Shown here one piece after another: positions 1 to 25,916 of a stretch of DNA of 61,323 nucleotides (the stretch's first letter is position 1; every line of letters begins with the position of its first letter). Origin of the DNA: an uncultured Gammaproteobacteria bacterium (GTDB lineage: Bacteria > Patescibacteriota > Microgenomatia > Levybacterales > GWA1-39-11); contig CAZAJO010000007.1 of NCBI GenBank assembly GCA_964485575.1, forward strand, positions 1 through 61,323, given 5' to 3'. The notes under the pieces are model-generated. The model made no database searches and was not told where the DNA came from. It saw nothing but the letters and a program-made list of their open reading frames with translations. The position numbers and the translations under genes are program-made.

Positions 1-1287
<1,287 letters not shown>

Positions 1288-1515: not shown

Positions 1516-1592
1516 AACTCACACAATAGACAATTATATCAAAATTGCCTCAAAAGAGCCACACATTTTATTTTGATGATTTCATCCCTCCG

Positions 1593-5688: not shown

Positions 5689-5717
5689 TTGGAATATATG
5701 CCTATTTCTGGTAAACT
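5689..5717 (+). promoter_or_regulatory. Sigma70-like promoter TTGGAA-N17-TAAACT upstream of tRNA-Cys
   Basis: TTGGAA at 5689-5694 and TAAACT at 5712-5717, 17 nt before the tRNA 5' end. Confidence 0.5.
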
Positions 5718-5734
5718 CAAGCCTACGACCGTAA

Positions 5735-5806
5735 GGCGCGGTGGCGAAGTGGTAACGCGGGAGTCTGCAAAACTTTTATGCGAGGGTTCGATTCCCTTCC
5801 GCGCCT
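5735..5806 (+). tRNA. tRNA-Cys (anticodon GCA)
   Basis: Acceptor GGCGCGG/CCGCGCC, anticodon stem GGAGT/ACTTT with loop CTGCAAA, T arm GAGGG-TTCGATT-CCCTT. 72 nt, no encoded CCA. Confidence 0.9.
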
Positions 5807-5946
5807 CATGAGTGAGAAATATAAATACATAGAACCTCTTAAAAAGGGGGTTGCTGTGACTGAACTTATTACAAAAACAGTCTATAAATCGATAGAACCA
5901 CGGGTGAAAAGAAGAATGATAAGAAATGTGGCAAAACTTCTGAGAA

Positions 5947-6225
5947 TTACATAACTTTCGTTTCAAATATGGTTGGAGATACAGTGCTCGTAGGTGTTGG
6001 CTCTAGTGTTGGAGTTGGAGTGGGCGTAAGCGGAGCTTGCCCCTGTGCAGGGGTGGGTGTTTTGACAACAGATGTCGGCAGAACTAGTGTGGGAGTTGGT
6101 TCTGAGGCCTGTTGCCTTGTATCTTGTTGCTGGCTCATTTGAGAAATTGTAAGTGGAAGTATAAGAAGGGCAAGAGCAAGGGCTCCCACTGGTAAAAGGC
6201 TGGAATAATTCCTTTTTTTAGGCAT
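5947..6225 (-). CDS. Small membrane-anchored PT-rich protein
   Basis: Start moved to the internal ATG at 6225 (MPKKRNYSSLLPVGALALALLILPL...). GGAGGA lies ~6 nt upstream, and the start mirrors the MPKKTT start of the next gene. Confidence 0.55.
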   Translation of the reverse strand: MPKKRNYSSLLPVGALALALLILPLTISQMSQQQDTRQQASEPTPTLVLPTSVVKTPTPAQGQAPLTPTPTPTLEPTPTSTVSPTIFETKVM

Positions 6226-6331
6226 CTTTGATCCTCCCCCAGGAATAGGGTTTTGAAAATTGTCATTGAGTCCAATTTTCGGTGCCAACGGCCCCTGAAA
6301 TGAATTTTGAGGTATTTCTGCCATAGAATTC

Positions 6332-6946
6332 TTAGCGTCCACCGATTGTAGGTGAAGCAACCGGCTGACTGACAACTATCTGTAATGGAGTGCTGATGTT
6401 AAGAACCGATGCTTGGGAGCTAAATGTGGTCACAGCAGATTTTGGTAGGAACGTAATTTGTGAAAAAGTTGCCCCTGAGAATTTATTTACTGTGAAACCC
6501 AATGTTGCAATTGATCCTGAGCCTGTTTTTTCAGAATCTGTATTTGAAACTGCTATCGCGTAAGAAATTCTTCCTTGAGCAGAGTCGACGTTATTTATGA
6601 GAACGACTGGATTTGTACCAAAAAATGGATTTCTAAGAGCAGGGGTTAGAGTGACATTGGTCAAAACTTTTGGGTCATAGGACAGTTCTATCTGAGCACC
6701 ACTAACAGGTTTTCCATTAGTGTTGATCATAATATCAATTACTTGTGCCGTTGAACTTTTTGAAACGTCGACTGGATTAGTTGAAAATGACAAATCCGCA
6801 TAGGCTTTAACAACAACCGGAGATGGAGTTGGAGGAGTAGAGTTGGTATTTGTCTGAAGGGATTGATCTGATCTGACTGCTAAATAAATCAGGACACCAG
6901 TGATGATAGCTAGAATGACAATGAGTATGGTTGTTTTTTTAGGCAT
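6332..6946 (-). CDS. Membrane-anchored cohesin-like module protein
   Basis: 204 aa. N-terminal TM, then a beta-rich module (VIDIMINTNGKPVSGAQIELSYDPKVL...GRISYAIAV...GSIATLGFTV). The same pattern occurs in 7012-8304 and 15233-15925. Confidence 0.6.
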   Translation of the reverse strand: MPKKTTILIVILAIITGVLIYLAVRSDQSLQTNTNSTPPTPSPVVVKAYADLSFSTNPVDVSKSSTAQVIDIMINTNGKPVSGAQIELSYDPKVLTNVTLTPALRNPFFGTNPVVLINNVDSAQGRISYAIAVSNTDSEKTGSGSIATLGFTVNKFSGATFSQITFLPKSAVTTFSSQASVLNISTPLQIVVSQPVASPTIGGR

Positions 6947-6976
6947 ATAGAGAGTTATTAATAATATTATGGCATA

Positions 6977-7002
6977 TTAACTATCAACTTTTAACTATCA
7001 AC
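6977..7002. repeat. Direct repeat TTAACTATCAAC x2 (2-nt spacer); the core AACTATCAAC also occurs at 4441-4450
   Basis: Read directly. All three copies lie just 3' of minus-strand genes for PT-rich secreted proteins. Confidence 0.85.
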
Positions 7003-7011
7003 TATTGGTTG

Positions 7012-8304
7012 CTAGTCCCCGTTTCTGATATAAAATCCACGGGACAAAATATTAGCGTCTATGTCATCACCTTTGACAACTCCATCATCATTAAAGTCTG
7101 CCTTTTGAGCAACTGCAGTTGTGCAAGCCGCCTGTCCACGATAACATGCCTGGAACAGATTATAGTCGAGAATATCTAGGGTATTATCAGAAGTATTATT
7201 AGGTCCGGTCAAATCTCCAGAAACTAATTCTACAGCAGGTACAGTATTGTCAGGAGACAATTTGTTAATAGTAACAATACCAGGTGTACGTTTGTATAGT
7301 GTATTATCCATCTTAATTTTGACAATGTAAGAACCACTCTGAGTAGCTATCGAAGAGCCTAGACTTATATATCCATCATACCTTCCTGTTGTTGTGCTAT
7401 ACGTCAATACCCCTGTCTTTTCTGTAGTTACTGGAGTGTTTGATGAATCAAGAACAATTGCAGTAGCGACCCTTGTCGCTCTATTAGGTGCATTCTTTTC
7501 TCCCAGGTTAGTTTTAGTACCAATTCCAGGTAAAGCTAAAGAAACCTTAAGTCCTGTTTGGTCGCTGCCTATTGTTGGGATTGGGATAGGAGTCGCGGTT
7601 GGAAGTGGGGTAGGGGCGGTGGTTGGCGTTGGACTTGGAGTCGGTGTATTTGTAGGTGTTGGTGATGTAGCAACAGCTTGCGTTGGACTTGGGGCAGTTG
7701 TTGTGGTTACGGTTGGAGTAGCTGAGGAGTCAATTGGTGTTGTTATAGTGTAGGTCCCGATTATTCCATTGCTATTGGTAATAGGAACATACGTCGAGTA
7801 GGTCGCAGCTGTTGCTTTTGTTGTTGAATCCAGAAAAATCTTTGATTCCCCTGCAGCTAAGGCGGTGAATTTAAAAGTAATGACATTCAAATTATTTCCA
7901 GTGACTTTTGGATTAAGATTCGTATTGATCATTGTTGCCGCATATTTGCCGGCTCCCACTGGGGCATTGTAGATGATTTTGAGTGCAGTATCTTGTTTTA
8001 TAATGGTTGGTGCCGAAAGCTTTGCTGTATCATATCCCAACAAGAATTGAAGTGCGCCTATATCTTCATTGGGAGCAGTATTGAGTAAGAGACTAACTTC
8101 AAAAGTAGAACCGACAACAATTGGTGTTGAATTTGATTGTGGACTGAAATTCAAAGAAATTGCAGGGGCTGTGTCAGCACGTTGTCTGACGTCTTGCTGT
8201 TTGAGCACTTGATTGATAACAAATGGTAATGAGAGTGCCAGGGCAATAACTAGACCAACCATCAATTTCGGTTTACTTCTAAATATCGTCTTTATTTTTT
8301 CCAT
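7012..8304 (-). CDS. Secreted protein: cohesin-like module, PT linker, Ig-like middle region, dockerin-like C-terminus
   Basis: 430 aa with an N-terminal anchor. The cohesin-like block is FEVSLLLNTAPNEDIGALQFLLGYDTAKL...ITFKFTAL. The C-terminal two-segment Ca-loop pattern is SDNTLDILDYNLF plus ADFNDDGVVKGDDIDANIL (D-x-N-x-D-G-x5-D). Confidence 0.65.
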   Translation of the reverse strand: MEKIKTIFRSKPKLMVGLVIALALSLPFVINQVLKQQDVRQRADTAPAISLNFSPQSNSTPIVVGSTFEVSLLLNTAPNEDIGALQFLLGYDTAKLSAPTIIKQDTALKIIYNAPVGAGKYAATMINTNLNPKVTGNNLNVITFKFTALAAGESKIFLDSTTKATAATYSTYVPITNSNGIIGTYTITTPIDSSATPTVTTTTAPSPTQAVATSPTPTNTPTPSPTPTTAPTPLPTATPIPIPTIGSDQTGLKVSLALPGIGTKTNLGEKNAPNRATRVATAIVLDSSNTPVTTEKTGVLTYSTTTGRYDGYISLGSSIATQSGSYIVKIKMDNTLYKRTPGIVTINKLSPDNTVPAVELVSGDLTGPNNTSDNTLDILDYNLFQACYRGQAACTTAVAQKADFNDDGVVKGDDIDANILSRGFYIRNGD

Positions 8305-8314
8305 ATTTTATTAA

Positions 8315-9448
8315 TCAGTTATTGTCTACTTTGTCGGTTTGCTGACGGTCTGGATTTGGGATTGGTGGGCTCGTTGGTGGTGGTACATGAGTTGGTGATG
8401 GAATTGGTGTAGTTTCCCGCGTATCAATAGGTGGGGTTTGTGAAACAGGACTATTTGCTGTACGGAGGCCGTAATTTATATCTTTCCAAACCTGAAAGTC
8501 CAAAATGTTGACAGTGTTGTCTCCTGGAACAAAACATGAGGTTAAGGTTGTATTTACTTGATGAGTGTATTCTTTAAGCCACAATTCATAATCTAATCTA
8601 TTTATGTACCCATCTTTTACTGGATCACAGGATAATTGTTGTGGTGTTGAGGTTGGGGTAATAGATGGAGCGGAAGGTGGGCAAGTTTTATGAGTAGAGC
8701 AAAAATTCTGTGCTTCAAAGTCTAGTCTAAATGTATCCGTGCACTGGAAAGAGCTTGTAAATGTTTTTTGGGTTCCATCATTACAGGTAACTGTTATTGA
8801 TTTTGCTTGAGAAGAGCGGAAACAACCAGTTCTATCATAGGTCTTTGCCATGATACCGTTGGAATTACAGTTTGAAGTTGTTGGGGTTGGTCCATTGGCA
8901 GTTCCACCTTCAGTTGAGGTTGGTGTTGGTGTTCTTGTTGGGGTTGGGTTTGTTTGAGCGACGGTGGGCGTGGCCGTGGGTAATGGTTTGTTGACGCATG
9001 TATTACTACCCTTTAGGTTTGAGGGTGTTAGAACGTCACAGTAGTTTGTCGAACATTGAGAATTTTCACTACACCCACACCCGTTTGCTTTATAAGTAGC
9101 AACACTGCAATTTTGGCAAACTGCAAACCCAGATGCATAAACTGATGTTAGTCCTGTACAGCAAGCAATCTGTTGTGTCGGATCAGGGCTTTGTCCTTGA
9201 TATGCACACTCAGCACGATAGGGACGTGACCCTGTACAATACTGAGTACTTTCCAGAGCACCCGGTCCTGTGCATACACCCTGCTGCGTGCCCATAGTGT
9301 TCGCACTTGGTGGTTGCTCAACGCAGCACCTTGTATTCCCACCACAGGCGCCGGTGGTTGTACAGGTCTGTACTTGAGCTTGCGACTGAGCAACAGAAAA
9401 TACAAAAAAGAGGACAAAAAACAAGAAGACTAACAATTTCTTTCCCAT
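8315..9448 (-). CDS. Secreted Cys-rich protein (24 Cys) with dockerin-like segments and a Pro-rich tail
   Basis: Start moved to ATG 9448, giving the signal peptide MGKKLLVFLFFVLFFVFSVAQSQA. Dockerin-like segments are DPVKDGYINRLDYELWL and GDNTVNILDFQVW, the latter shared with 7012-8304. Confidence 0.6.
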   Translation of the reverse strand: MGKKLLVFLFFVLFFVFSVAQSQAQVQTCTTTGACGGNTRCCVEQPPSANTMGTQQGVCTGPGALESTQYCTGSRPYRAECAYQGQSPDPTQQIACCTGLTSVYASGFAVCQNCSVATYKANGCGCSENSQCSTNYCDVLTPSNLKGSNTCVNKPLPTATPTVAQTNPTPTRTPTPTSTEGGTANGPTPTTSNCNSNGIMAKTYDRTGCFRSSQAKSITVTCNDGTQKTFTSSFQCTDTFRLDFEAQNFCSTHKTCPPSAPSITPTSTPQQLSCDPVKDGYINRLDYELWLKEYTHQVNTTLTSCFVPGDNTVNILDFQVWKDINYGLRTANSPVSQTPPIDTRETTPIPSPTHVPPPTSPPIPNPDRQQTDKVDNN

Positions 9449-9507
9449 ACAAAATACGACGTGCAGTTTAATAGTAGTGAACTTCGGGTAGGGTGTCAAC
9501 CGGAAGA

Positions 9508-11580: not shown

Positions 11581-12186
11581 GTGGAAGAGTTGATTGAAAA
11601 AATTGGTTGGAAGAAATTCGGAATAATAGTTGTGGTTCTCTGCTTTATTCTCTTGGGCTTTGCACTTCTTTCTTTTGCAAATATTGATAAGAAGCAGACG
11701 GATGTCATCAAAAAGAAAATTGAGATAGAAAAGCAACAATCACGCACCAATAGTACTAAAGGTGGGGGTTTTACAGACATTGAATTTAAGCCTTATGTCA
11801 CACCTGATTATCAGCTGAAATATCCTTCAGATTTCACCACTAAGAGTGCAGAACCAAGCAAGGGTACTAAAAATAGTGTCCTATTTGTGAATAACAACAG
11901 TAATGCAAGTATTTTTGTAGAGGTCTTTGCAAAACCACAAAATACTTATGAAGCGTTGATAAAGCCATATCTACTTAGTGATTACGAGCCTGAGGCTCAA
12001 CCTTTGGAATTTCCTACTTCTGTTGAATTTATTCCTACGAAAGTAGAGGATCCACTGATCCACAAGAAAATTGATTTTATCGAGAAGGATAACTCGATTG
12101 TTAAAATAACTTTGACCTATTCTAGTGATGGAATAGATACTGAAATAGAGCGGAATTTTGTTAAATTACTGATAAGTCTTCGCTAG
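11581..12186 (+). CDS. Membrane-anchored hypothetical protein
   Basis: 201-aa ORF with GTG start and one TM helix (FGIIVVVLCFILLGFALLSF). Its stop is 1 nt from the stop of the convergent gene. Confidence 0.55.
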   Translation: MEELIEKIGWKKFGIIVVVLCFILLGFALLSFANIDKKQTDVIKKKIEIEKQQSRTNSTKGGGFTDIEFKPYVTPDYQLKYPSDFTTKSAEPSKGTKNSVLFVNNNSNASIFVEVFAKPQNTYEALIKPYLLSDYEPEAQPLEFPTSVEFIPTKVEDPLIHKKIDFIEKDNSIVKITLTYSSDGIDTEIERNFVKLLISLR

Positions 12187-12187: not shown

Positions 12188-13006
12188 TCAGTACTGTATC
12201 GTAGTACATGCTTCACTGATATCTCCCTCACCACGATCCCCATCATGAAGTATGATCTGTGCTCTATAGACGTGACCGTCAGTAAGACCGAGGTTCTTTA
12301 CATCCCATATCATCTCTGCGCCAAAGCTTGGTTCAAATCTCGGATTAACACCTTCAAATTTAACGTTAGAATCTTTTGGAAATGGATCCGCTCCTGGGCC
12401 TAGATCAAGCGCGTTGGCAGGGAAGGGTGCGGTATTGGCGTTGAGTGCTTTCCACGCTCCGAAAATTTCATCGGGCTTGTAGGCTTTTCCACCACTTTGA
12501 GCATCTCCTGACGTGTTGTTGGGATCAGTTGTAATATCACTGATAAATATCGCAGGGAAGAAAGGAAAACCATTAGAATCTTTTGCAGTTTCATCCCCAA
12601 CAACCGGATTTACGGCGTGGTCCTGGGAGCTTTTAGGTGGTGTGACTGCGCCTTTTCCTAAAGTAATAGGCCACTCGTCTTGGTAAAAGACTTTTATCTT
12701 TCCATCTTTTTGTACGATTGTCCCAGGCGCTGGATCTATTGCCCACAATATATATGGTTCTGAAATGCCTTGTATCTTTCCATTTCCACAGTCAAGAGTG
12801 GGAGGAACAAACCTTTTGAATTTAAGAGTTTTTAGCTGTAGATTTTGATTTGCCGGTCCAGAATCTGTGCTATCCTGCCCGTACTGTTCATTTGGATTTG
12901 TGGCAGATTTATTTACCATAGCGCCACTAGTCATAAGAATTCCAAACGCGATAACAATAAAAAGTAGTGGAATTAAAATCTGTCCCGATTGTTTTGTTCT
13001 AAGCAT
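12188..13006 (-). CDS. Secreted protein with TadE/TadG-like N-terminus
   Basis: 272 aa. The N-terminus MLRTKQSGQILIPLLFIVIAFGILMTSG resembles Tad_N pseudopilin-like leaders. The remainder matches no family I recognise. Confidence 0.6.
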   Translation of the reverse strand: MLRTKQSGQILIPLLFIVIAFGILMTSGAMVNKSATNPNEQYGQDSTDSGPANQNLQLKTLKFKRFVPPTLDCGNGKIQGISEPYILWAIDPAPGTIVQKDGKIKVFYQDEWPITLGKGAVTPPKSSQDHAVNPVVGDETAKDSNGFPFFPAIFISDITTDPNNTSGDAQSGGKAYKPDEIFGAWKALNANTAPFPANALDLGPGADPFPKDSNVKFEGVNPRFEPSFGAEMIWDVKNLGLTDGHVYRAQIILHDGDRGEGDISEACTTIQY

Positions 13007-13022
13007 ATTCTTTTGTTTTTTT

Positions 13023-13049
13023 TGTCTAATTCCTGTCGATGACGCCTCC
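13023..13049 (-). pseudogene. Remnant of a third paralog 3' end (...GGVIDRN*)
   Basis: 27 nt identical to 14217-14243, which is the stop region of the gene at 14220-15200. No ORF remains upstream. Confidence 0.5.
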
Positions 13050-13105
13050 CTGCCCCAAGAGCACTTGCCATTTCATGGTGGCGCATTCTAATTTGTGGGT
13101 CGTTG

Positions 13106-14131
13106 TCATCTGTCGATGACACCTCCCCATTCTACGGCTGTAAAACCTGCACGTTTTGGTGGAGTAGACGGGTTAAACAATTTAGTTTCGAATTTTTCAT
13201 CAACCCCTTTAAAGTATGCAATAAATTGGATAAAAACGTTAGGGGTAGGCACTATCTCGACATGATCAGTACGCTCCTTCTCTTCTTTGTCAAGAATTGA
13301 GAAGAAGATGTATCTCTTGTTAAGAGCCAGGAGGCGGGGAGTCCAATATTCAATAAACTCATTTGATTCCATTAAATCCAATCCTAGCCTTGTTGTTTGA
13401 GTCCTGAGTTGTTCAACTAGGTTTTTGCTTTCTATGAAAATTCCGCTGTCTGGGGCTTTGAGTTCTTGTTGCGAACTTTCATAATAAAGCTCCCTATAAT
13501 AATTGTTTTTGTAATACAAAATTCCACCAGGCATTGCAAGTACCCCAAACCAACCATTATTGTATTCTGGAATACTCTCAACTATGTTGCCAGAGACAGT
13601 CACATCTACATAGGTAGATTTTTCCGGATAGAGATAGATAACGGGTTTCCCGATACAATAGTAACCATCTCCCTCTTTTGCATAAGCCTTGCACAGGCTG
13701 TCATTGTATGGAAATTCATTTGGATGGCCATTTATTATAACGGCTTTTCCGTTGATACAAAGAAATGTAAAGTTGGGACATTTACATACGCTGGGATCAG
13801 TCTTCTTACCACTATCTGATATGCACATGGTTGATGTTGGGACTGGCGTTTCTGTTGTCGTTCCTGTTGGTGTTACTGTTGTCGGAGGGGCTGTGGGGGA
13901 TTGGAAATCCAAATCCACCATATGAAGTCCTTCTTTGTAGTCTAATTTTTTAGCATCTGTGGCTGTGTAAACGTTAGTGTCTGTAACGGTGGACTTGGGG
14001 TGTTTAAAAAATCCAGTGAAGTTCATGATCACCAGAAGGACGAGTCCCATGAAAAAAAGTGAAAGAGCAGAAAAACCCTTCTGCCACCTAGAAGACATAA
14101 GACAGTAGACAAAAGACAGAAGTCTAACCAT
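13106..14131 (-). CDS. Membrane-anchored surface protein, paralog A (conserved KPVIYLYP... C-terminal domain)
   Basis: 341 aa: TM, PT linker, Cys-containing region, then a ~190-aa domain highly similar to 14220-15200. Confidence 0.7.
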   Translation of the reverse strand: MVRLLSFVYCLMSSRWQKGFSALSLFFMGLVLLVIMNFTGFFKHPKSTVTDTNVYTATDAKKLDYKEGLHMVDLDFQSPTAPPTTVTPTGTTTETPVPTSTMCISDSGKKTDPSVCKCPNFTFLCINGKAVIINGHPNEFPYNDSLCKAYAKEGDGYYCIGKPVIYLYPEKSTYVDVTVSGNIVESIPEYNNGWFGVLAMPGGILYYKNNYYRELYYESSQQELKAPDSGIFIESKNLVEQLRTQTTRLGLDLMESNEFIEYWTPRLLALNKRYIFFSILDKEEKERTDHVEIVPTPNVFIQFIAYFKGVDEKFETKLFNPSTPPKRAGFTAVEWGGVIDR

Positions 14132-14219
14132 ATTAATAGTATAGAGCTTTTATCTTTTTACTTCTAGCTAGCGTGATGCGCCAAGCTCTGCTTATTGTCT
14201 AATGACTTTTGTCTAGTGT

Positions 14220-15200
14220 CTAATTCCTGTCGATGACGCCTCCCCATTCTACGGCTGTAAACCCGATGCGTCTTGGTGGAGTAGAAGGGTTAAACAATTT
14301 AATTTCGAATTTTTCATCAGCCCCTTTAAAGTATGCGATAAATTCAATAAATGTATCTGGTTTTGGGTTAATTTCAACATGATCGGTTCGCTCCTTTTCT
14401 TCCTTATCAAGAATAGAAAACAGAATATATTTTTTGTTAAGAGCTTGTAGTCGAGGTGTCCAGTAGTCAACAAATTCTTGGGCTTCAATGTCAATTAGTC
14501 CAAGTTTTAATACCTGGTTTTTCAATTCCTGTCTTAATGTTGTTGTTTCTAGAAAGATTCCATTATCTGGAGGATTTAATTCTTCTTGCGAACTTTCATA
14601 ATAGAGTTCCCTATAATAATTGTTTTTGTAAAACAACACTCCGCCGGGCATCGCCAATACCCCAAACCATCCATTATTATATTCCGGAATGCTTTCAACG
14701 ATGTTTCCAGACACAGTTACATCAACGTACGTAGGTTTTGTGGGATACAGATAAATTACAGGTTTTCCCATGCAGAACCATTTGCAGGATGAGTCCTCAG
14801 ATGCTCGAGCTTGGCACTGAATTGTATCTCCCATACATACAGGATTTGCTAAAGGAGGAAAATTACCATTGCAATAGAGACCGAGTGGAAGATTTGGGTC
14901 GCACATACATCCAACACGTTCTCCATAGTGAGGACAATAATTGCTTGTTGGAGTTGGAGTTCTTGTAACTCCCGGTAGGGTTGGTACGGGTATTGATGTA
15001 GGCGTTGGAGTTGGAGATTCAAAATCAATATCCACCATGTGAAGGCCCGTACTGTCAATTTGTTTGCTTCCGGAAGCATTGTAGACATTAGTATCTGTAA
15101 TTGGTGATTTTGGATGTTTGAAAAATCCGGTAAAGTTCATGATGACAAGTAGAATAAGCCCCATGAAAAAAAGAGACAAAGCAGAAAAACCTTTGGACAT
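14220..15200 (-). CDS. Membrane-anchored surface protein, paralog B
   Basis: 326 aa. It shares the N-terminus KGFSALSLFFMGL.LLVIMNFTGFFKHPKS and the block VTVSGNIVESIPEYNNGWFGVLAMPGG with paralog A. Confidence 0.7.
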   Translation of the reverse strand: MSKGFSALSLFFMGLILLVIMNFTGFFKHPKSPITDTNVYNASGSKQIDSTGLHMVDIDFESPTPTPTSIPVPTLPGVTRTPTPTSNYCPHYGERVGCMCDPNLPLGLYCNGNFPPLANPVCMGDTIQCQARASEDSSCKWFCMGKPVIYLYPTKPTYVDVTVSGNIVESIPEYNNGWFGVLAMPGGVLFYKNNYYRELYYESSQEELNPPDNGIFLETTTLRQELKNQVLKLGLIDIEAQEFVDYWTPRLQALNKKYILFSILDKEEKERTDHVEINPKPDTFIEFIAYFKGADEKFEIKLFNPSTPPRRIGFTAVEWGGVIDRN

Positions 15201-15232
15201 ACTATTAGTATAGAATATTTTAAATCTTCTAG

Positions 15233-15925
15233 CTATTTATAAACTACTGGGGGTTGCTCTGTAGGAAAGACTCCATTTATTGGGTAGTTTACAATAAGAG
15301 TACTTTTCTGAAGTACGATAACTTTGCCTCCCTCACGTGAGATAAGTGCCGTTGATGGGGAAAAAGCGATTGATGTCTTCGTTATATTGGTACTTTTAGG
15401 GATAAAAGTAAGAACAGCTACTTTTCCTAGACCTTTTTGTAGAGGGGTGGTAGAAGCCATCTGAAGAGGCAATGTTATGACACCATTTACCGTGTCATTA
15501 TGAGAAGATGACGGTTCAAAGGCGAGAGAAACTGTCGAATTTTTGTCTTTGAACTGGGTAAGCGTTACATTTCCGACAACATTTGGATTGTAGGATATCG
15601 AAATATTAGCTCCCGAAATCTCTTTGCCCCAGGTATTAACGTACACATCAATAGTTTGGACTTTCCCCAAAGGAGCATTTATAGTTGTCGGGTCAAAATA
15701 AACAGTCGCTTCAGGTGAAGTAAGATTGACAGTCGGAGTAGGGCTGGAGAAGATCCCATTCTTCCCGCCTTTTCCAGTAATTAATGTCACGACAAAAATA
15801 ATAGCTAAGAAAATAACTATTGCTCCAGCCAAAAGAATAACCTTATTCTTAAGAAGTTTTTGCAAGCCTGTTTCAGGGTTCTGATTTGTGAGTTCTGAGT
15901 TCTGAGTTATTTCATTATTTTCCAT
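15233..15925 (-). CDS. Membrane-anchored cohesin-like module protein
   Basis: 230 aa. TM helix, then VQTIDVYVNTWGKEISGANISISYNPNVVGNVTL...GKVAVLTFIPKS. Confidence 0.6.
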   Translation of the reverse strand: MENNEITQNSELTNQNPETGLQKLLKNKVILLAGAIVIFLAIIFVVTLITGKGGKNGIFSSPTPTVNLTSPEATVYFDPTTINAPLGKVQTIDVYVNTWGKEISGANISISYNPNVVGNVTLTQFKDKNSTVSLAFEPSSSHNDTVNGVITLPLQMASTTPLQKGLGKVAVLTFIPKSTNITKTSIAFSPSTALISREGGKVIVLQKSTLIVNYPINGVFPTEQPPVVYK

Positions 15926-15926
15926 A

Positions 15927-18677
15927 TTAATTTGACGTACAACAAGCTCCTCTTACGGTGCCATATGCAGCCGCACAATCTGCATTTCCAACAGGTCTAG
16001 CATTTGGATAAGAGCCAAAACATGATGCTTGGCAACTATTTACTCTACCATCGCCATTGTCCAGTGGACAACCCGTTGCTGCAGGCCCTTTTGTAGGGGC
16101 AGGAGTAGTAGTTGTTCCAGGAGCACTTGTGACAACAGGGGAAGGAGTAGAGCAGCTAGAAAGAGGGGTATTACCTCTTCTGTAGCATTGTGGGGTGTCC
16201 GGATTCCAGTCAGCACATGCTGTATTTGCAACACTATCATTAGTGGGTCCATATCCCACTTGGCACGCGTTTGCTGCTACGCATAAATGATTTCCGTCAT
16301 TTGGACATCCTTTTGAGACAGGTGTCGGTGTAGAGTATGGAGTAGATCCTGTACAGATTGCGGGATCAATACTCTTTGGCATAAGTGATTTTGTCCGGTC
16401 GCACCAAAGGTTGGTTGCAGGGAATGGCACACAGAAATATTTGGATGGATCATCAAGGGATGGCTCTGGATTGTGTGAAGAAGCGCAACCACATGCGGAA
16501 GCAGTTGTACAAGGACATCCAGTCCCTTTAAATCCAGACGTGCAATTATTGGAAGCGCCTGGGGTAGGAGTAGGAGTTGGTTTGCCAGCAGGGTACTGGC
16601 AGGTGAATACGCCGTTAAGGTCCGGATCAAGGCATCTGGCTCCTGCTGGATAATCAGAACAGTCTGTGTCTCCACCCTTATAGCAAACATCCCCAAGACC
16701 TAATTTCCTATAACACCCCTGTCCAGCATCAACACAAGTTCCGGCTACATCGCAAAATCTTTTGTTATCAGGACAACAAGTAGTAAGAGTACTGCTATTT
16801 TGGGTGTTTGAAGAATTGTAGTTGAAAGTACAGGTGTAATTTGGTCCATGGACTTTTGCACAATCAACAACTGCCCCTCCAAGGCCAGCTTTACATACCG
16901 GGGTTACAGACGCATCAATCCATGGATAACTATCGCATGATTTATCAGCAGATGGGACAAGCACATCAACATAATTAGTTCCATCAGCGCCTGTTTTTGT
17001 GCAGCGGTAGCGGTCAGCATAGACTCTTCCGGGTTGAGCAGTCTTAGGATCGGTAGCACCAATGAGCCTATGGTCACAAGTAGGGCCTTCGTATCCATTT
17101 GGTTTGCTAAATACTGTATCAACATTTCCTTTTCCAGACTGTGAACACACATCACTTGTAGGAGCGGGGCTTGTCGAAGAACCAGGAGTAGTAGTGCCAC
17201 CACCGGAATTAGGTGAACCCAATCCACTACGTTTTGAATAAATACTGTCGTTTCTAAAGCAACTGCCACCCTTGCTTCCACAGCTATAAAGACCAGTGTT
17301 TGTGGTAGGAGTGCTATAAGTAGTTGAAGGGTCCCCGCTTGGTGTTTCGGCAGAACTCAAGCATTTAAAGGCAGAGTCATTATTGTCATCCAATTCACAC
17401 GAATTTCTATTCGGATCTGTATTACCCGATGGACCTGATGCTGCCGTGCACACAAATTCACTGCTGGTACTAGGTTTTGTACAACTTTTGCTCTGGCAGG
17501 CATCGCCGTGTCCAGAGTCACAATAAGAACCATTAGCCAGTGGCTTAGTAGCACATACATGGTGTCCTAACGAAGGGTTTGGTATACATGCTCCTCCCTC
17601 GCATAGTTCTGGTTTTAGAGCTTCACATTGATCACCGTTCTTTTTAAGTGCTGTGCTTTCTGGTGTCTTTTTGACGCAATTGACATCAGGACAAACCAAT
17701 CCGTCTTCACATACACTATCAAAATAACAGAAATCTCCTTCCTTCATGCTTTTTTTAAATTGGCAAGTTAATGTGCCGGATCTTGGATCGTAGCCAATAC
17801 AATAACCTTGTCTACAGGCCAGATCATCGCTACATGGTTCACCCAATCCCTGGCTTCTTGGATCGATACATGTATGGCGTCCTATTGCTACTATCCCTCC
17901 ACAAAGACCAGACACGCAAGCAGTATTTTCAAAACACGCCCCTCCATTCGGTATACTTCTTGGGAGAACGCAAAGGCGCTGCTTAGCATAATTTTCGCCA
18001 CCACAAACCTCATTGCCATTGCATTCAGAAGTTTCTTTACAAACTTTCAGCGAACTACCACTTGAAGGTGGTGATTCTTGAGGTGTTGAAGATATTTTCG
18101 GGGGAGGAGTTTGGTTTTTGTAATAGCAGGTTCCAGAATTATGATCACATGACTGGTCAGAGTAGCACCCAGCGCCTGCGTGAGTGTCATTACAAGCTTC
18201 TCCCCATCGCGTATCATCTTGGCTCACACACTTAGGTTGTTCATTGTTGCCATACCACCCTGCATACCAAAAACATTTATTTGCAGTGCTATTACAAGTG
18301 TTTGGATCGCCAATTGAACCGCATGATTTAGGTCTACATATGTTGTCGTCACATGACAAATCTGCGTTACAATCTGGCGTATGACCACAAGTTCCACCAA
18401 TTCCGCTTGTGTGTGCCCTGCAAATGTTATTGATACAGACATTCGGACTTCCAGCACATTCTCCATCGTCATAGCACCAGCAAGTGGTATTGTCATCATG
18501 CTTATTTGGAACACGTGGATTTGTTTTATCTAATTCTATATCTTCCGGGTTCCCCGTTCCTGGAGTGCACACATAAGTTCCTCTTGTATAGTTTGCATAG
18601 CCAGGACCTGTCGTTAGAAGAAATAAGAAAAATATGGTCACAAAAAACGAAAATAAATAAGGCCATTTGGCTTTCAT
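15927..18677 (-). CDS. Giant secreted hyper-cysteine-rich repeat protein (82 Cys)
   Basis: Start moved to ATG 18677, giving the signal-like MKAKWPYLFSFFVTIFFLFLLTTGPGYA. At least 9 copies of a 4-Cys module G-x-x-C-x(4-8)-C-x(3-6)-C-x(4-14)-C. Confidence 0.75.
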   Translation of the reverse strand: MKAKWPYLFSFFVTIFFLFLLTTGPGYANYTRGTYVCTPGTGNPEDIELDKTNPRVPNKHDDNTTCWCYDDGECAGSPNVCINNICRAHTSGIGGTCGHTPDCNADLSCDDNICRPKSCGSIGDPNTCNSTANKCFWYAGWYGNNEQPKCVSQDDTRWGEACNDTHAGAGCYSDQSCDHNSGTCYYKNQTPPPKISSTPQESPPSSGSSLKVCKETSECNGNEVCGGENYAKQRLCVLPRSIPNGGACFENTACVSGLCGGIVAIGRHTCIDPRSQGLGEPCSDDLACRQGYCIGYDPRSGTLTCQFKKSMKEGDFCYFDSVCEDGLVCPDVNCVKKTPESTALKKNGDQCEALKPELCEGGACIPNPSLGHHVCATKPLANGSYCDSGHGDACQSKSCTKPSTSSEFVCTAASGPSGNTDPNRNSCELDDNNDSAFKCLSSAETPSGDPSTTYSTPTTNTGLYSCGSKGGSCFRNDSIYSKRSGLGSPNSGGGTTTPGSSTSPAPTSDVCSQSGKGNVDTVFSKPNGYEGPTCDHRLIGATDPKTAQPGRVYADRYRCTKTGADGTNYVDVLVPSADKSCDSYPWIDASVTPVCKAGLGGAVVDCAKVHGPNYTCTFNYNSSNTQNSSTLTTCCPDNKRFCDVAGTCVDAGQGCYRKLGLGDVCYKGGDTDCSDYPAGARCLDPDLNGVFTCQYPAGKPTPTPTPGASNNCTSGFKGTGCPCTTASACGCASSHNPEPSLDDPSKYFCVPFPATNLWCDRTKSLMPKSIDPAICTGSTPYSTPTPVSKGCPNDGNHLCVAANACQVGYGPTNDSVANTACADWNPDTPQCYRRGNTPLSSCSTPSPVVTSAPGTTTTPAPTKGPAATGCPLDNGDGRVNSCQASCFGSYPNARPVGNADCAAAYGTVRGACCTSN

Positions 18678-18719
18678 AATGAGTATGAATAGAATGTCAT
18701 ATCCCGCAAATAAAGTCAA

Positions 18720-19196
18720 TTATGTACAGCCTGTTGGATTTCCGTTGTATTTTTTAAGAACTGTTCCTGAGGATAGGACTCTTATTTCCCAACTCCCCGT
18801 TCCAAATCCAATATCATTAGGTAAAGTAAGTGGATAATTTGTGATAGGAGAGGTAAAAGGTTGAGGAGTACCTATTTCTTTTGATCCAAGCCATAACTCT
18901 ACAGTTCCATTAGTAGGTCCTTCAATTTTTACATTACCTGTCACAAAGGCAGTTTTTCCTGGTTGGCAACTACCCAATGTAACCGTTATATTCCATGCAC
19001 CTGCAGTTGGAGTTGAGGAGCCTGGGGTGGTTGTTGCAAGAGGGTCTGTTGGTGGAGTTGGCTCATCCGTTACTGAAGTGGGTTCATTCCCTGTAAAAAG
19101 TGAGCCCCCACCGCCAGAAAGCATTACTGCAAAAATAATTACAACAATCACAAGAATTATGTAGACTGTTGACTGACCTCTTTGAAGGTTGGGCAT
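18720..19196 (-). CDS. Small secreted protein with TadE/TadG-like N-terminus
   Basis: 158 aa: MPNLQRGQSTVYIILVIVVIIFAVML..., a PT stretch, then a beta-rich domain with 2 Cys. Confidence 0.6.
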   Translation of the reverse strand: MPNLQRGQSTVYIILVIVVIIFAVMLSGGGGSLFTGNEPTSVTDEPTPPTDPLATTTPGSSTPTAGAWNITVTLGSCQPGKTAFVTGNVKIEGPTNGTVELWLGSKEIGTPQPFTSPITNYPLTLPNDIGFGTGSWEIRVLSSGTVLKKYNGNPTGCT

Positions 19197-19201
19197 AATA
19201 T

Positions 19202-20134
19202 TTACAGGTCGCTGCAGATTCTTTGTGCGATTTCTTTGTAGATCTGTTTTAACTTTGTAGGGTCTGGAGTCTCATAAAAATTTGCTGGGTCGCTTACTAT
19301 ATTTGTCATCATATTGCGCATATCGGGGAGGAAGAATATATCACTTTCATCATTTTTGTCATAGATGGCTATAGCGTAGACATTAATACCGGCGTCCCTT
19401 ATCTCTTTGGCGACACTTGGTAACTGTGTAGGATCTTGGGTGAGAGCAAAGCATCTGTTTTGGAATTTGCGCCCGCTTGGACACGAAGGTGCTTCCGATT
19501 GATTCTCAGGAATTCCGTCAGAAAGAAGAATCATTGCAAAATCATTTTCAGGGAATTTTTTTTGAGCAGCAATAATTTTGTCTTTCATAAGTAAAAATGC
19601 TGCCCGAGTATGAGTTGATCCCCCGGGAGGGTTGTAGCTTCTTATTGCTGAAGCTACTTGACCTTTTACATCTTGATATCGTGAGAAGGGAACATCTTCA
19701 GATACCTCGCGTGGTTCACTACTAAAAGAAACCATTCCTATCACTGACTGGCCTCCAAGCCCAGTCGTAAAGGCAGTTAAGGCATCTTGCATGTTAACAA
19801 CTTTTGCTCCTCTCATTGATCCCGAGCGGTCGATGATAAGTCCAACTGCAGCTTTACTGGCGCACTCTTTGAATTTGATCGTCTTTAGTTGAAGTCTTGA
19901 TCCATATGGAGCAGGGGTTTCAAGAACCAATTCTAATTCTCCAGTTTCCCCGGGATCAGAGAGGACAGATTTTGGTGTGACCCCGCGGGAGAGTAACACA
20001 CCCATTCCAATTGCCAATGCGATAAAGGCAACAGTGAACATGGTCCCAGGTCCTGTAAGACTCATCCCAAATCTTCCACCAGAAGAGGTGCCATTACCAA
20101 ATATTCCACCACGCTTCCTATTGTTTGCCATCAT
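19202..20134 (-). CDS. Membrane-anchored von Willebrand factor A (vWA) domain protein
   Basis: 310 aa. MIDAS residues are DRSGS...GGSTH...LSDG, after one TM helix (MFTVAFIALAIGMGVLL). Confidence 0.8.
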   Translation of the reverse strand: MMANNRKRGGIFGNGTSSGGRFGMSLTGPGTMFTVAFIALAIGMGVLLSRGVTPKSVLSDPGETGELELVLETPAPYGSRLQLKTIKFKECASKAAVGLIIDRSGSMRGAKVVNMQDALTAFTTGLGGQSVIGMVSFSSEPREVSEDVPFSRYQDVKGQVASAIRSYNPPGGSTHTRAAFLLMKDKIIAAQKKFPENDFAMILLSDGIPENQSEAPSCPSGRKFQNRCFALTQDPTQLPSVAKEIRDAGINVYAIAIYDKNDESDIFFLPDMRNMMTNIVSDPANFYETPDPTKLKQIYKEIAQRICSDL

Positions 20135-20187
20135 TTTATTTTAGATTGTAAATTTGAATGATGTCAAATTGAGCGTTTAGTTGGAGG

Positions 20188-20218: not shown

Positions 20219-20581
20219 ATGATAAATTCTTATAAAGAATTAATTGTTTGGAAAAAAGCTATGGATTTATCCAGACTTATCTATAAAGAAACCAAACTAT
20301 TTCCTAAAGATGAAATGTATGGGTTAACATCACAAATTAGAAGAGCTTCTGTTTCAATCCCGTCTAATATAGCAGAAGGTTACGGGCGAAAATCGCGGAA
20401 AGAGTATCTTCAATTCTATTCAATTGCATATGGTTCGGTTCTAGAACTCGAAACTCAGATTATCCTCGCGCATGACTTCGGCTATATTTTAGATGGTCCA
20501 TTTACAGCAATCGAAAAACAAGCAGATGAAGTTTCAAGAATGCTACACTCCATGATCCTGAAACTAAACGCTAAACCCTAA
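20219..20581 (+). CDS. Four-helix-bundle protein (23S rRNA intervening-sequence protein family)
   Basis: 120 aa. ...LIVWKKAMDL...IYK.T..FPK.E.YGLTSQIRRA.VSIPSNIAEGYGR....E..QF..IA.GS..ELETQ is the classic family pattern. TATAAT at 20206-20211 lies 7 nt before the ATG. Confidence 0.85.
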   Translation: MINSYKELIVWKKAMDLSRLIYKETKLFPKDEMYGLTSQIRRASVSIPSNIAEGYGRKSRKEYLQFYSIAYGSVLELETQIILAHDFGYILDGPFTAIEKQADEVSRMLHSMILKLNAKP

Positions 20582-23820: not shown

Positions 23821-24429
23821 ATGAAAATTCCAAAAGCATTAGAGCGTGTTGTCGAAAGCTTTGAGCGGCTTCCCGGTATCGGTCCAAAGTCTGCTCAAAG
23901 ACTTGGGTTTTATTTACTCCATGTTCCTCAAAGTGATCTTGAAGACTTCGCGGATGCGCTAATCAACCTTAAAAAGAATACTAAAATGTGTGCGATATGC
24001 TTCAATATCGGCACAACAGAACTTTGTGATGTGTGTGCAGATCCAGAACGCGACGTATCAACGGTCTGCATTGTTGAGGATGCATTAGACGTTCTTGCAT
24101 TTGAGAGGTCTGATAAATTTAAAGGGGTCTATCATGTTTTGCATGGTGTTGTTGATCCGCTTAATTCTATCGGTCCTGACGACATATATATACCACAGTT
24201 AATGAATCGAATTAGGGAGAAGGAATCAAAAGTTAAGGAATTGATTATTGCAACAAATCCCACGATGGAAGGCGAGGCAACAGCAATGTATATAGCGAAA
24301 GGAATAAAGAATGAGGAATCAGGGATTAAGCTAAGTAGGATTGGAAGAGGCCTTCCAGTTGGTGCAGACATCGAATACGCTGATGAAGTGACATTGGGAC
24401 GTGCTTTGGAGGGAAGAAGCGAATACTAA
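23821..24429 (+). CDS. recR: Recombination protein RecR
   Basis: 202 aa with LPGIGPKSAQRL, a C4 zinc finger C.IC....C..C, and a Toprim region. Confidence 0.95.
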   Translation: MKIPKALERVVESFERLPGIGPKSAQRLGFYLLHVPQSDLEDFADALINLKKNTKMCAICFNIGTTELCDVCADPERDVSTVCIVEDALDVLAFERSDKFKGVYHVLHGVVDPLNSIGPDDIYIPQLMNRIREKESKVKELIIATNPTMEGEATAMYIAKGIKNEESGIKLSRIGRGLPVGADIEYADEVTLGRALEGRSEY

Positions 24430-25916
24430 GCAGCTTTTGCTAGATCATCAGTTGCAGATGCTTGACCAGGTTGTGCTGGAAATTGTGTAACAGAATCGCT
24501 AGCTTCAGGAGTAGGAGGGGTAGTTGGTAAACCTGCACTAAGAGAAGCAGTATCATCTACGATTCCAGCTTCAGTTGCAAGAGGTGTTGGTAGTACAGGG
24601 TTAGTTGGCGACATTGTTCCTGGAACAGCAACAGTAGGAGCTGTGGGTTCATTGTCAACATCATTTGCGACCGGAGCAGCATCATCCGCAATTTCACCAA
24701 CAGTTGACGTTTCAGAACCGGTTTCTATCGGAATATCATGACCAACTTCTGCTGTTTGATCAGATGGTTCAGCAAGTGCAGCAGCAGAGAATGGAGGTCT
24801 TTCAGCGGCGACTGCGGCTCCATCAGCCATAGCTTGACCAAGAGCGTCACCATCAACAGCAGCATCACCACTAACAACAGGTGCATCAGGATGTGAAGCT
24901 GTTCCATCGACTGACCAATCTGGTGGAGCCATAGTACCATCTGCAACTGCCCCGGGACCCGCATGAACTGCTTCAGCATTTGCATCTGCGGACTGACCAA
25001 CTGGTAATTCTTCTGCTGGAGCATCTTCAGTAGCAACCTCTTCAGTTCCTGGCTCTACGACTGGAGTTGTTTCAACTGAAGTTGCGGCGGTTTTACTTGG
25101 GTCTCCTAGTCCTTCCACTGGGATAGCAGCAGCAGGTGCTTCTGGCAAAGCGCTTACTTCCTCAGCTGGTGCAACGTCAGCACTTGGAGTAAAAACTGCT
25201 GGAGTCTCAGGTGCATCTGTCTCAAGGACAGCAGGATGCTCTCCCGCATTTTCCATATCTTGTGTCAAGGTAGTTGCAGCTGCTTCAACTACAGGTGCTG
25301 GGACAACTTCTGGTTGAGTTGTACCAAGTGAAGGAGCAGGGGTTGCTACAACTTCAGCAGAAGCAGGTGTTGATGCGACCATTCCGCCATTTTCTGGACT
25401 TGGAATTGAATTTTGGAATGGTACACCTGTTGCAGCACCAGCAGCCATGGCATCGGGAGTTGAGAGCCCAGCATAGTTATTTGCTGCAGGAGTACTAAAG
25501 TCTCTCGTTACTGCAGGACCATCGGCAGTTGCACCGTTAAGATTGGCAACTGGTGGAGTTTCAAGAGTGCCATTTGGTGTTGTAGTTAGATGGTCAGGGG
25601 TGGGTTGTGGAGTGACAGTTTCAGTAGTTACGCTTGCACGAAGACCCAATGCGCCCAAAATTTTATGAAATCTCCCTGGTTCTTGTGGTGCTGTTTTTTG
25701 TGCAGCAACTTCAGCGGCTTTAGTATTTGCAGTAGCGAGTATTTCAGGCATTTGAGGAGTACCCACAGCTTCAAGTCCAGTCAAAGGTTTTGCTTCAGGT
25801 AGAACGGCAGGGTGCTGTCCATCAGCTTCCATATCTTGAGTTAGTGTAGTTGCAGGAGCAGCATCAACCGTTGGTGCACTAGATGTAGTATTGGGGGATT
25901 CTGTCTGAATATCCAT
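24426..25916 (-). CDS. Highly acidic, low-complexity (A/P/T/E/D/V) protein, predicted disordered
   Basis: 496 aa with no TM or signal peptide. By eye it has ~11 K/R against several-fold more D/E. It contains an internal repeat TTLTQDME(A/N)(D/A)G(Q/E)HPAVL and one basic amphipathic patch, GRFHKILGALGLRAS. Confidence 0.6.
   Translation of the reverse strand: MDIQTESPNTTSSAPTVDAAPATTLTQDMEADGQHPAVLPEAKPLTGLEAVGTPQMPEILATANTKAAEVAAQKTAPQEPGRFHKILGALGLRASVTTETVTPQPTPDHLTTTPNGTLETPPVANLNGATADGPAVTRDFSTPAANNYAGLSTPDAMAAGAATGVPFQNSIPSPENGGMVASTPASAEVVATPAPSLGTTQPEVVPAPVVEAAATTLTQDMENAGEHPAVLETDAPETPAVFTPSADVAPAEEVSALPEAPAAAIPVEGLGDPSKTAATSVETTPVVEPGTEEVATEDAPAEELPVGQSADANAEAVHAGPGAVADGTMAPPDWSVDGTASHPDAPVVSGDAAVDGDALGQAMADGAAVAAERPPFSAAALAEPSDQTAEVGHDIPIETGSETSTVGEIADDAAPVANDVDNEPTAPTVAVPGTMSPTNPVLPTPLATEAGIVDDTASLSAGLPTTPPTPEASDSVTQFPAQPGQASATDDLAKAA

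Follow-up and report, generated by a model that had tools for sequence, protein, structure and literature searches.

The subject of this analysis is a cluster of genes for exported proteins on contig CAZAJO010000007.1 (assembly GCA_964485575.1; 61,323 nucleotides, the whole of which is called the window below) of an uncultured bacterium of the Levybacterales (Patescibacteriota; Microgenomatia). ORF calling finds seven co-directional open reading frames (ORFs) on the minus strand between positions 12188 and 20134, as a first-pass annotation made from the bare sequence had claimed; they are denoted g1 to g7 in 5' to 3' order. An eighth gene, cv201, lies outside the coordinates of that annotation and converges on g7, with only 1 nt between the two stop codons. 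A Kyte-Doolittle scan of g1 to g7 gives exactly one hydrophobic segment per protein, located near the N-terminus, preceded by basic residues and followed by Cys or by Pro/Thr-rich sequence. The single N-terminal helix of each product predicts a membrane anchor or secretion, in agreement with the earlier proposal. Searches of Pfam and NCBIfam with the seven products and three neighbours return VWA and weak Cohesin matches only, and no enzyme or transporter family for any product. Housekeeping genes flank the cluster: rpsB, tsf, an M50 protease gene, frr, and recR to one side, glyA and an HD hydrolase gene to the other. The closest relatives of the encoded proteins come from Levybacteria/Levyibacteriota and other Microgenomates-type assemblies of the Candidate Phyla Radiation (CPR).

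The first gene, g1 (19202..20134, minus strand), encodes a membrane-anchored von Willebrand factor A (vWA) protein of 310 aa with a transmembrane (TM) helix at residues 30-48. Its assignment stands: Pfam VWA (PF00092) is matched with E 1.1e-15 and 58.8 bits (gathering score 23.8), and the metal ion-dependent adhesion site (MIDAS) is complete, with DRSGS, GGST, and LSDG all present. Among 22 homologs, the MIDAS residues DxSxS, Thr, and SDG are at least 85% conserved, except for the first Ser (50-85%). A sequence/profile search of the PDB with g1 yields a single match, the vWA domain of ITIH4 (E 0.009). The protein is composed of an N-terminal module denoted type-A anchor (LTGPGTMFTVAFIALAIGMGVLLSRGVTPKS), a short strand, LQLKTIKFKEC, starting at position 19894, and the vWA domain; C91 and C307 are conserved in the 22 homologs.

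The paralogy claimed for g5 (326 aa, 14220..15200, minus strand) and its tandem copy g6 (341 aa, 13106..14131, minus strand) is borne out by 60% identity in BLASTP (E 8e-141) and by DNA repeats at a distance of 1117 nt. The two proteins are nearly identical in anchor and C-terminal domain, but the Cys-rich middle (~60-100 aa) is unrelated, and the DNA repeats D2-D5 skip it. g5 consists of an anchor helix, a low-confidence beta-hairpin with the strand GLHMVDIDF, a Pro/Thr linker, a variable Cys-rich insert, and a conserved domain of ~180 aa with the signature KPVIYLYP…GFTAVEWGG, denoted the g5-type domain. The AlphaFold2 (AF2) model, built from a 60-sequence alignment with a mean predicted local distance difference test score (pLDDT) of 85, displays a helix of 17 residues (7-23), the low-confidence hairpin (41-61), and an alpha/beta domain (~144-326) at pLDDT >90. 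Neither g5 nor g6 matches Pfam, NCBIfam, or the PDB sequence set (including a profile search with g5), and Foldseek finds no solved structure in the PDB that resembles the g5 model (best E 0.6). In BFVD, the only significant Foldseek match of this model is the uncharacterized protein A0A3G4ZNZ8 (E 5.7e-10) of Terrestrivirus, a giant-virus metagenome assembly. Homologs of g5 fall into 484 clusters, all unnamed, and a profile of distant g5-type domains reaches at least 2749 clusters. Many of these are proteins of ~210 aa with merely a TM helix and the domain, one of them on a SpoIIP-encoding Firmicute contig; the domain is also found in Thermodesulfobacterium thermophilum and, in other lineages, in long proteins fused to Big_2 or SdrD_B. 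Residues K, Y, Y, E, R, and R and the C-terminal GFTAVEWGG are among those invariant in the distant members.

The last gene of the series, g7 (12188..13006, minus strand), encodes 272 aa that comprise a type-B anchor module (GQILIPLLFIVIAFGILMTSGAMVNKSATNP), the strand NLQLKTLKFK starting at position 12841, and a beta-sandwich. An alignment of 28 homologs reveals the invariant residues FYQDE…HDGD…GD..E.CTT, and in the AF2 model made from these 28 sequences (pLDDT 82) residues 11-26 form a helix, residues 30-58 are disordered, and the invariant pair C73-C267 closes the beta-sandwich that follows. As for g5, no match exists in Pfam, NCBIfam, or the PDB sequence set; Foldseek comparison of the model with the PDB retrieves generic beta-sandwiches only (best E 0.024). 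A likeness of the model to archaellin is weak (E 0.11) and was judged non-specific. An exhaustive profile search detects the g7 domain in 732 representative clusters, 177 of them at E<=1e-30, with one to six copies per giant protein and protein lengths of up to 2899 aa. The giants sampled carry type IX secretion system (T9SS) sorting domains (Por_Secre_tail), SdrD_B, HYR, and DUF7507, and no Pfam model covers the g7 domain itself. Judged by these associations, the g7 domain appears to keep the company of adhesin modules.

The convergent gene cv201 (11581..12186, plus strand) encodes a protein of 201 aa in which, as in g1 to g7, a single hydrophobic helix lies near the N-terminus (TM at 15-33). 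PsbP_2 (PF18933) is matched by 14 of 41 aligned members of the cv201 family (best 7e-12) and PsbP by six of the 41; cv201 itself has no PsbP_2 match, and the family member from a related 1.14-Mb Levybacteria chromosome (locus L002) covers the full profile length with 24.2 bits (cutoff 27). The family profile further has weak PDB matches to PsbP and to the mycobacterial lipoprotein LpqN (E 0.025). Because family members match PsbP_2 or PsbP and the profile weakly matches PsbP and LpqN, cv201 is predicted to be a membrane-anchored protein of the PsbP fold located outside the cell. It would share the fold family and the anchored, extracytoplasmic location with PsbP_2 proteins and LpqN, but differs from these in the constant pairing with a KPVIYLYP-domain gene, which was not met in the libraries or literature searched.

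A scan of species-representative genomes, made to see how far the cluster is conserved, gave at least 459 places that encode a g5-type domain. ORFs were called in 82 fetched loci and their proteins classified by jackhmmer; counts refer to 78 non-redundant loci and to best-hit labels checked by eye, since labels for g7 and for some long g5 matches are partly driven by a shared N-terminal module. The most constant neighbour of g5-type genes is the cv201-type gene, which is present in 50 of 78 loci and stands tail-to-tail beside a g5-type gene in 45, often as two or three tandem pairs. The copy number of g5-type genes ranges from one to five per locus, and the vWA gene adjoins them in many loci. 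Among the 26 paired loci whose flanks extend for 4 kb or more in both directions, vWA occurs in 15, g2 in nine, g4 in nine, g7 in three, rpsB in 17, and glyA (serine hydroxymethyltransferase, SHMT) in 18.

Gene content and most of the order, on which the first-pass annotation had staked its proposal, are kept in relatives. The order vWA, g2, Cys-rich giant, cohesin-like protein, g5 recurs in nine loci (L001, L005, L008, L010, L014, L038, L039, L041, and L050) and, in partial loci, in L009, L011, L012, and L032; it persists at protein identities of 40-78% and holds for about ten genomes of Levybacteria-like bacteria. In L005 (74% identity), vWA, g2, g3, g4, g5, and g6 are followed by the convergent gene and glyA, and g7 is missing. 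L001 (43% identity to g5) shows rpsB, a g7-like gene, vWA, a coiled-coil ORF, a g2-like gene, a gene for a Cys-rich protein of 566 aa, a cohesin-like gene, and two g5-type genes, continued by a convergent gene for 205 aa, a third g5-type gene, and glyA. In L002, rpsB and glyA enclose no more than vWA, one g5-type gene, and the convergent gene. In L003 and L004, one protein of 561 aa (P0108) combines the vWA and g5-type domains, and its gene is again followed by the convergent gene. The seven genes, presented at first as the unit, therefore do not delimit it: what is widely conserved is the g5-type domain with the convergent PsbP-like protein, often joined by the vWA protein. On the evidence of these loci, g2, g3, and g4 are an elaboration of one Levybacteria-like sublineage, and g7 is sporadic, optional, and placed at either end of the cluster. 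In distant small-genome lineages (L083-L085, 6001-6642), as well as in L002, g5-type genes lie beside glyA, thyA, and folA. Because g5-type genes adjoin these three genes in the distant lineages too, the one-carbon/thymidylate neighbourhood seems to predate the Levybacteria cluster.

These data bear directly on the main rival of the reading preferred below, a role in envelope maintenance, where the g5-type and PsbP-like proteins would remodel, transport, or chaperone an anionic polymer in the wall or membrane of the cell itself, vWA and the remaining proteins would be accessory, and the whole would be housekeeping. In most Microgenomates-type loci the pair is fixed between rpsB-tsf and glyA, and the g5-type domain is found in free-living non-CPR bacteria and as a minimal protein of TM helix and domain. 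The residues K, Y, Y, E, R, R, and E are invariant across distant members, and LpqN, to which the cv201 family is weakly similar, is an envelope lipid-binding lipoprotein. Housekeeping neighbourhood and wide distribution of the g5-type domain favour this explanation. However, no product matches an enzyme or transporter family, and the variable Cys-rich inserts, the fast-evolving 82-Cys giant g3, and the cohesin-like and adhesin-type modules would not be expected of housekeeping wall enzymes. The variation in g5-type copy number also speaks against it. Envelope maintenance is rated as rather unlikely, while being the strongest of the competitors.

A further argument for a joint function comes from a short strand and exchangeable anchors common to otherwise unrelated proteins. 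g1 (LQLKTIKFKEC) and g7 (NLQLKTLKFKRF…C) have the same strand right before unrelated globular domains, and g5 and g6 contain the variant GLHMVDIDF. The motif LQL.T occurs in 17 of 24 vWA, 49 of 111 g5-type, and three of three g7 proteins of the loci, compared with seven of 1922 other ORFs; in the 28 g7 homologs its Q and second L are invariant, and its first L and T are at least 90% conserved. The modules of helix plus linker that precede the strand are of distinct types and have been exchanged between cargo types in different genomes (BLASTP 1e-21, 2e-25, and 1e-24). Thus, a g7-type protein of L001 carries the anchor type of the window's g1 (47% identity, E 1e-21), a g5-type protein of the same locus that of the window's g7 (53% identity, E 2e-25), and other g5-type proteins are likewise equipped with the g7-type anchor (63% identity over 68 aa). 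Proteins of 727-762 aa encoded in two related loci (L030:1631-3919 and L063:1220-3403, both minus strand) consist of a TM helix, a large repeat region, which looks beta-propeller-like by eye, the strand NQLQLETF, a Cys-rich insert, and a divergent g5-type domain reading DSPLYLYG…GFTAVEV. Since the repeat region is inserted between TM helix and strand, the strand seems to travel with the g5-type domain rather than with the anchor; in a protein of 458 aa from L001 the strand likewise precedes the g5-type domain after an insert that follows the TM helix. The conserved Cys after the strand and at the C-terminus (C91/C307 in g1, C73/C267 in g7) suggest that a disulfide staples each domain. The NLQLKT strand itself may, as we infer, be a common element of assembly or recognition.

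Three genes of the cluster belong to the sublineage-specific part. g2 (158 aa, 18720..19196, minus strand) carries an N-terminal TM helix (RGQSTVYIILVIVVIIFAV), followed by a Gly and Pro/Thr linker and a beta-rich domain of ~90 aa with two Cys; it has no match in Pfam, NCBIfam, or the PDB sequence set, and homologs occupy the same slot in 11 loci. g3 (15927..18719, minus strand) is a secreted Cys-rich protein, for which 917 aa with 82 Cys had been reported. The count of 82 Cys (8.9%) is correct, and the length is 930 aa from a TTG (18719) or 916 aa from an ATG (18677). The Cys are arranged in repeated C-x5-6-C-x5-6-C-x11-12-C modules, a cleavable signal peptide (…GPGYA|N) is likely by its sequence, and Pfam, NCBIfam, and the PDB sequence set contain no match. 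Wherever g2 and g4 are both present, the gene between them encodes 563-1000 aa with a Cys content of 5.7-8.9%, also in loci whose protein has no detectable similarity to g3. g4 (230 aa without Cys, 15233..15925, minus strand) is a membrane-anchored protein with a cohesin-like beta-sandwich, present in 15 of 78 loci. This assignment, made in the first-pass annotation, stays just below threshold in direct comparison (Pfam Cohesin, PF00963, E 1.6e-3 and 19 bits, cutoff 24.1) and is supported only transitively, through a BLASTP similarity (2e-12) to protein 6332-6946 nearby, whose own Cohesin match is above threshold at 29.2 bits.

The latter protein belongs to a second block of genes for secreted proteins (4474-9499, minus strand), parted from the locus by glyA and the HD hydrolase gene only and syntenic in at least eight related genomes; its products are two proteins with Cohesin domains, a 25-Cys protein, and a CAP-domain protein that has a TM helix at either end. 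The two blocks together raise the question of a display system of the cellulosome type, in which membrane-anchored g4 and the cohesin proteins at 6332-8304 would dock dockerin-bearing secreted proteins (e.g. 8315-9499), and the other genes would be cargo. Cohesin is matched above threshold by 6332-6946 and 7012-8304, with g4 homologous, the C-terminus of the 25-Cys protein 8315-9499 gives a weak Dockerin_1 match (E 0.02), and both blocks are syntenic in relatives. On the other hand, this match is below threshold (15.5 bits, cutoff 22.9), the C-terminus of 7012-8304 has no dockerin match, none of g1 to g7 includes a dockerin-like segment, the cluster encodes no carbohydrate-active enzyme, and g4 is not part of the wider core. 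Like cohesin-dockerin systems, g4 and its two neighbours place cohesin-like beta-sandwiches on membrane anchors, with a weakly dockerin-like C-terminus in one neighbour; unlike them, the locus lacks enzymes, has sub-threshold dockerin evidence, and has its cohesin-like gene outside the wide core. A cellulosome-like function is consequently regarded as improbable.

Transcription of the cluster as a single operon, as initially assumed, is not established. The claimed gaps of 1-99 nt hold for the order g1 to g7 (5, 39-42, 1, 32, 88, and 99 nt), and with the TTG at 18719 as the start of g3 the g2/g3 gap shrinks to 0. A strong promoter-like site, TTGACA-18-TAAAAT (20138..20167, minus strand; 11/12 matches), ends 3 nt upstream of the g1 ATG, and TATACT boxes end 6 nt ahead of the ATGs of g5 and g6; the upstream regions with these -10-like boxes are 20135-20167 (g1), 15201-15225 (g5), and 14132-14155 (g6), all on the minus strand. 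None of the seven genes has a Shine-Dalgarno motif ahead of it. Boxes located 3-6 nt before the ATGs of g1, g5, and g6, along with the missing Shine-Dalgarno motifs, may point to leaderless mRNAs. Terminator-like hairpins occur at the frequency expected by chance from shuffled sequence and are not enriched, and the promoter and terminator scans could not define transcription units. Because of the promoter-like boxes at g1, g5, and g6 and the chance-level terminators, one transcript is plausible for g1 to g4 and less certain for g5, g6, and g7.

Separate promoters are one of the points that would be expected if the locus were no functional unit at all and merely gathered unrelated secreted-protein genes in a permissive syntenic region. 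The variable presence and position of g7 and the location of the vWA gene either before or after the g5-type/PsbP-like pair fit this explanation, too. It is difficult to reconcile with the fusion of vWA and g5-type domains, the repeated convergent pairing with the PsbP-like gene, the order kept over 40-78% protein identity, and the locus-specific motif and anchor modules common to three unrelated domain families, and we assign it a small probability.

The first-pass annotation had compared the N-termini of g2 and g7 with those of TadE and TadG, which leads to another alternative: the proteins may sit at the tip of a Tad or type IV pilus or serve it as accessory parts, with TadE/TadF-like pseudopilins and a TadG-like vWA adhesin, and the pilus machinery would be encoded in another part of the genome. 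TadG, PilY1, and modular pilins are known to bear vWA modules, PilB of Streptococcus sanguinis being an example of a modular type IV pilin with a vWA module. g2 starts with MPNLQRG|QSTVY…, and its homologs keep RGQS(S/T)(V/I)Y, or KGEAEF and KGGVEVF, which recalls the TadE pattern G|xxxxE; g5 and g6 start with KGFSAL and g7 with SGQILIP. The related locus L006 also has N_methyl, PilX_N, PilM, and PilO genes at a distance of 4.5-10 kb. Yet in Pfam searches with g1, g2, g5, g7, and three g2 homologs, no TadE (PF07811), Tad_N (PF13400), or N_methyl match appears even at E<=10, NCBIfam gives none either, and neither a class III signal peptide nor the N_methyl profile (PF07963) is matched. This profile works in the lineage, since a canonical N_methyl pilin is detected elsewhere in the L002 genome. 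The Glu at position +5 is replaced by Y in g2 (G|QSTVY), P in g7 (G|QILIP), S in g5 and g6, and V in g1, and E near this position is confined to distant g2 homologs. A pilin has an alpha1 helix of ~50 residues packed on a beta-sheet, whereas the AF2 models of g5 and g7 show no pilin fold, only a helix of 16-17 residues followed by a disordered Pro/Thr linker. In addition, vWA homologs from other genomes vary in their N-termini and show no common cleavage motif. As the first-pass annotation had noted, the sizeable ORFs of the window include no pilus ATPase, secretin, prepilin peptidase, or sortase; neither a pilus platform protein or secretion machinery nor tad machinery (TadA/CpaF, TadB/C, TadV) was found among them. 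A pilus origin fails in every membership test run and is kept as the least probable of the alternatives, because the g2 homologs retain their TadE-like start RGQS(S/T)(V/I)Y.

Several described systems resemble the locus in part. With the Tad (Flp) proteins TadG, TadE, and TadF, the locus has in common small N-terminal-helix proteins encoded beside a vWA protein and, in g2, the RGQS.V start; it differs from them by lacking a profile match, the +5 Glu, the pilin alpha1 helix (in the models), and nearby tad genes, and by the Pro/Thr linker after the helix. Minor-pilin/PilY1 priming complexes and vWA-bearing type IV pilins are comparable in the vWA MIDAS, the co-encoded small helix-anchored proteins, and a presumed adhesive function, but the locus proteins have no class III signal peptide or N_methyl, no pilin module between helix and vWA domain, and only short anchor helices. 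BatA/BatB of the Bat/MoxR operons resemble g1 in carrying vWA on an N-terminal TM helix within a multi-gene membrane-protein cluster; here, however, the partners are KPVIYLYP-domain and PsbP-like proteins instead of tetratricopeptide repeat proteins, and the MoxR AAA+ ATPase and DUF58 are absent from the window and the related loci. The modular adhesins of Gram-positive and T9SS-bearing bacteria (SdrD_B, HYR, Big_2) include g7 and g5-type domains as modules of giants in other phyla, in contrast to the separate small proteins encountered here, which have their own anchors, the NLQLKT strand in common, and no LPXTG or T9SS sorting signal. LPXTG is absent from the C-termini (…RICSDL, …NPTGCT, …ACCTSN, …PPVVYK, …GGVIDRN, …GGVIDR, and …CTTIQY), and the window has no Sortase match. 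In agreement with the initial impression that no described system matches the locus, neither the libraries searched nor the literature on Patescibacteria/CPR with von Willebrand, pili, or cohesin, or on Microgenomates with dockerin, gives such a locus. The locus can be viewed as a variant within the broad class of vWA-containing surface-protein clusters, with a motif of its own and two domain families that are widespread but uncharacterized.

Taken together, the gene content, the topology signals, the domain identities, conservation, fusion, and module swapping are best explained, at somewhat less than even confidence, by a binding assembly at the surface of a monoderm-like CPR cell, tethered to the outer face of its cytoplasmic membrane and distinct from a pilus; the physical assembly of the proteins, the role of the motif, and the adhesive function are what we infer from them. 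The products are built of modules common among bacterial surface proteins: a MIDAS-bearing vWA domain, a beta-sandwich of cohesin-like type, repeats rich in Cys, and another beta-sandwich recurring in T9SS- and SdrD-type giants. In the proposed mechanism, each protein would be tethered by its single N-terminal helix, with g3 probably released by signal peptidase, and a Pro/Thr- or Gly-rich spacer would hold the domains away from the membrane. The core would consist of the vWA protein, whose intact MIDAS could bind an acidic ligand via a divalent cation, of one or more KPVIYLYP…GFTAVEWGG proteins with a rapidly diverging Cys-rich insert before each domain, and of the convergently encoded PsbP-like membrane protein, probably an extracytoplasmic partner or chaperone. 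A functional linkage of vWA and g5-type proteins is suggested by the natural fusion P0108, by the adjacency of their genes, and by the recurrent convergent pairing of g5-type and PsbP-like genes. The sublineage would have added the small beta-domain protein g2, the fast-evolving disulfide-rich giant g3, the cohesin-like g4, and the adhesin-type beta-sandwich g7. The interchangeable anchors of vWA, g5-type, and g7 proteins, which end in an NLQLKT(I/L)KF strand followed by Cys, may bring the proteins together at the membrane, either by strand pairing between subunits or through recognition by one shared factor. The external partner bound by the resulting assembly would be, e.g., a polymer, a host cell, or the wall of the cell itself. 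Fast divergence of the Cys-rich insert of g5/g6 and of the g3 slot between conserved flanks is the pattern expected of exposed interaction surfaces.

Several points weigh against the proposed binding assembly. g7 is absent from the close relative L005 and shifted in L001 and is hence not a fixed subunit; a common transcript is uncertain; and the motif region is of low confidence in the g5 and g7 models (pLDDT 47-70). The wide spread of the g5-type domain and its usual housekeeping neighbours (rpsB, glyA) fit a general role in the cell envelope at least as well as adhesion, and the invariant polar residues (K, Y, R, and E in g5-type domains; D, E, H, and D in g7) mean that both domains could be enzymes. 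The idea of an episymbiont's host-contact device, put forward in the first-pass annotation, is weakened because g5-type and g7 domains occur outside the CPR, in Thermodesulfobacterium, a SpoIIP-encoding Firmicute, and T9SS-bearing bacteria. A more specific version must be called doubtful, namely that of an undescribed, non-pilus hetero-oligomeric apparatus of Microgenomates-type CPR in which NLQLKT-ended anchors would co-assemble (or be co-processed) and display vWA MIDAS domains, KPVIYLYP-domain proteins with hypervariable inserts, and adhesin-type beta-sandwiches around the PsbP-like partner, with the Cys-rich giant and the cohesin-like protein as an outer layer in contact with hosts or substrates.

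Other features of the window are mentioned for completeness. Divergent from the vWA gene lies a gene for a four-helix-bundle protein of the Avd-like/23S_rRNA_IVP family (20219-20581, plus strand), a family that adjoins 16 of the 82 related loci, L003 with two copies. The idea that the locus is the target of a diversity-generating retroelement, derived from this adjacent gene, was rejected, as no reverse transcriptase is present among the scanned ORFs and no pair of template and variable repeats was found; the sole long direct repeats in the locus are those of the g5/g6 duplication. The acidic product of a gene at 24426-25916 (minus strand), 496 aa long, has a high content of Ala, Pro, Thr, and Glu; the gene contains an internal repeat at a spacing of 576 nt, and the protein lacks both an N-terminal helix and a Pfam match. 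The window opens with part of a bacterial 16S rRNA gene (1-1285, plus strand), after which comes tRNA-Ile in reverse orientation (1440-1516, minus strand), and no 23S rRNA is found anywhere in the 61 kb; the rRNA genes are therefore unlinked. An S-adenosylmethionine (SAM) riboswitch (S-box; 32750-32854, plus strand) above the Rfam gathering score is situated directly downstream of a major facilitator superfamily transporter gene (31415-32722) and ~280 nt upstream of a DNA-alkylation-repair gene (33134-33880). The pyruvate phosphate dikinase gene (41385-44048, plus strand) resides in a block of ~59% GC, compared with ~39% in the rest of the window, a contrast that suggests recent horizontal acquisition.

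To our knowledge, how CPR/Patescibacteria other than Saccharibacteria make contact with hosts or substrates is largely unknown. The locus offers a concrete, conserved, and testable candidate for such contact, in which a MIDAS surface protein is coupled to two large protein families that have neither a Pfam model nor a solved structure, and the NLQLKT strand with its swappable anchors points to a rule of assembly or sorting. Should envelope maintenance instead prove true, the pair of g5-type and PsbP-like proteins would represent a widespread, uncharacterized extracytoplasmic module of monoderm-type bacteria.

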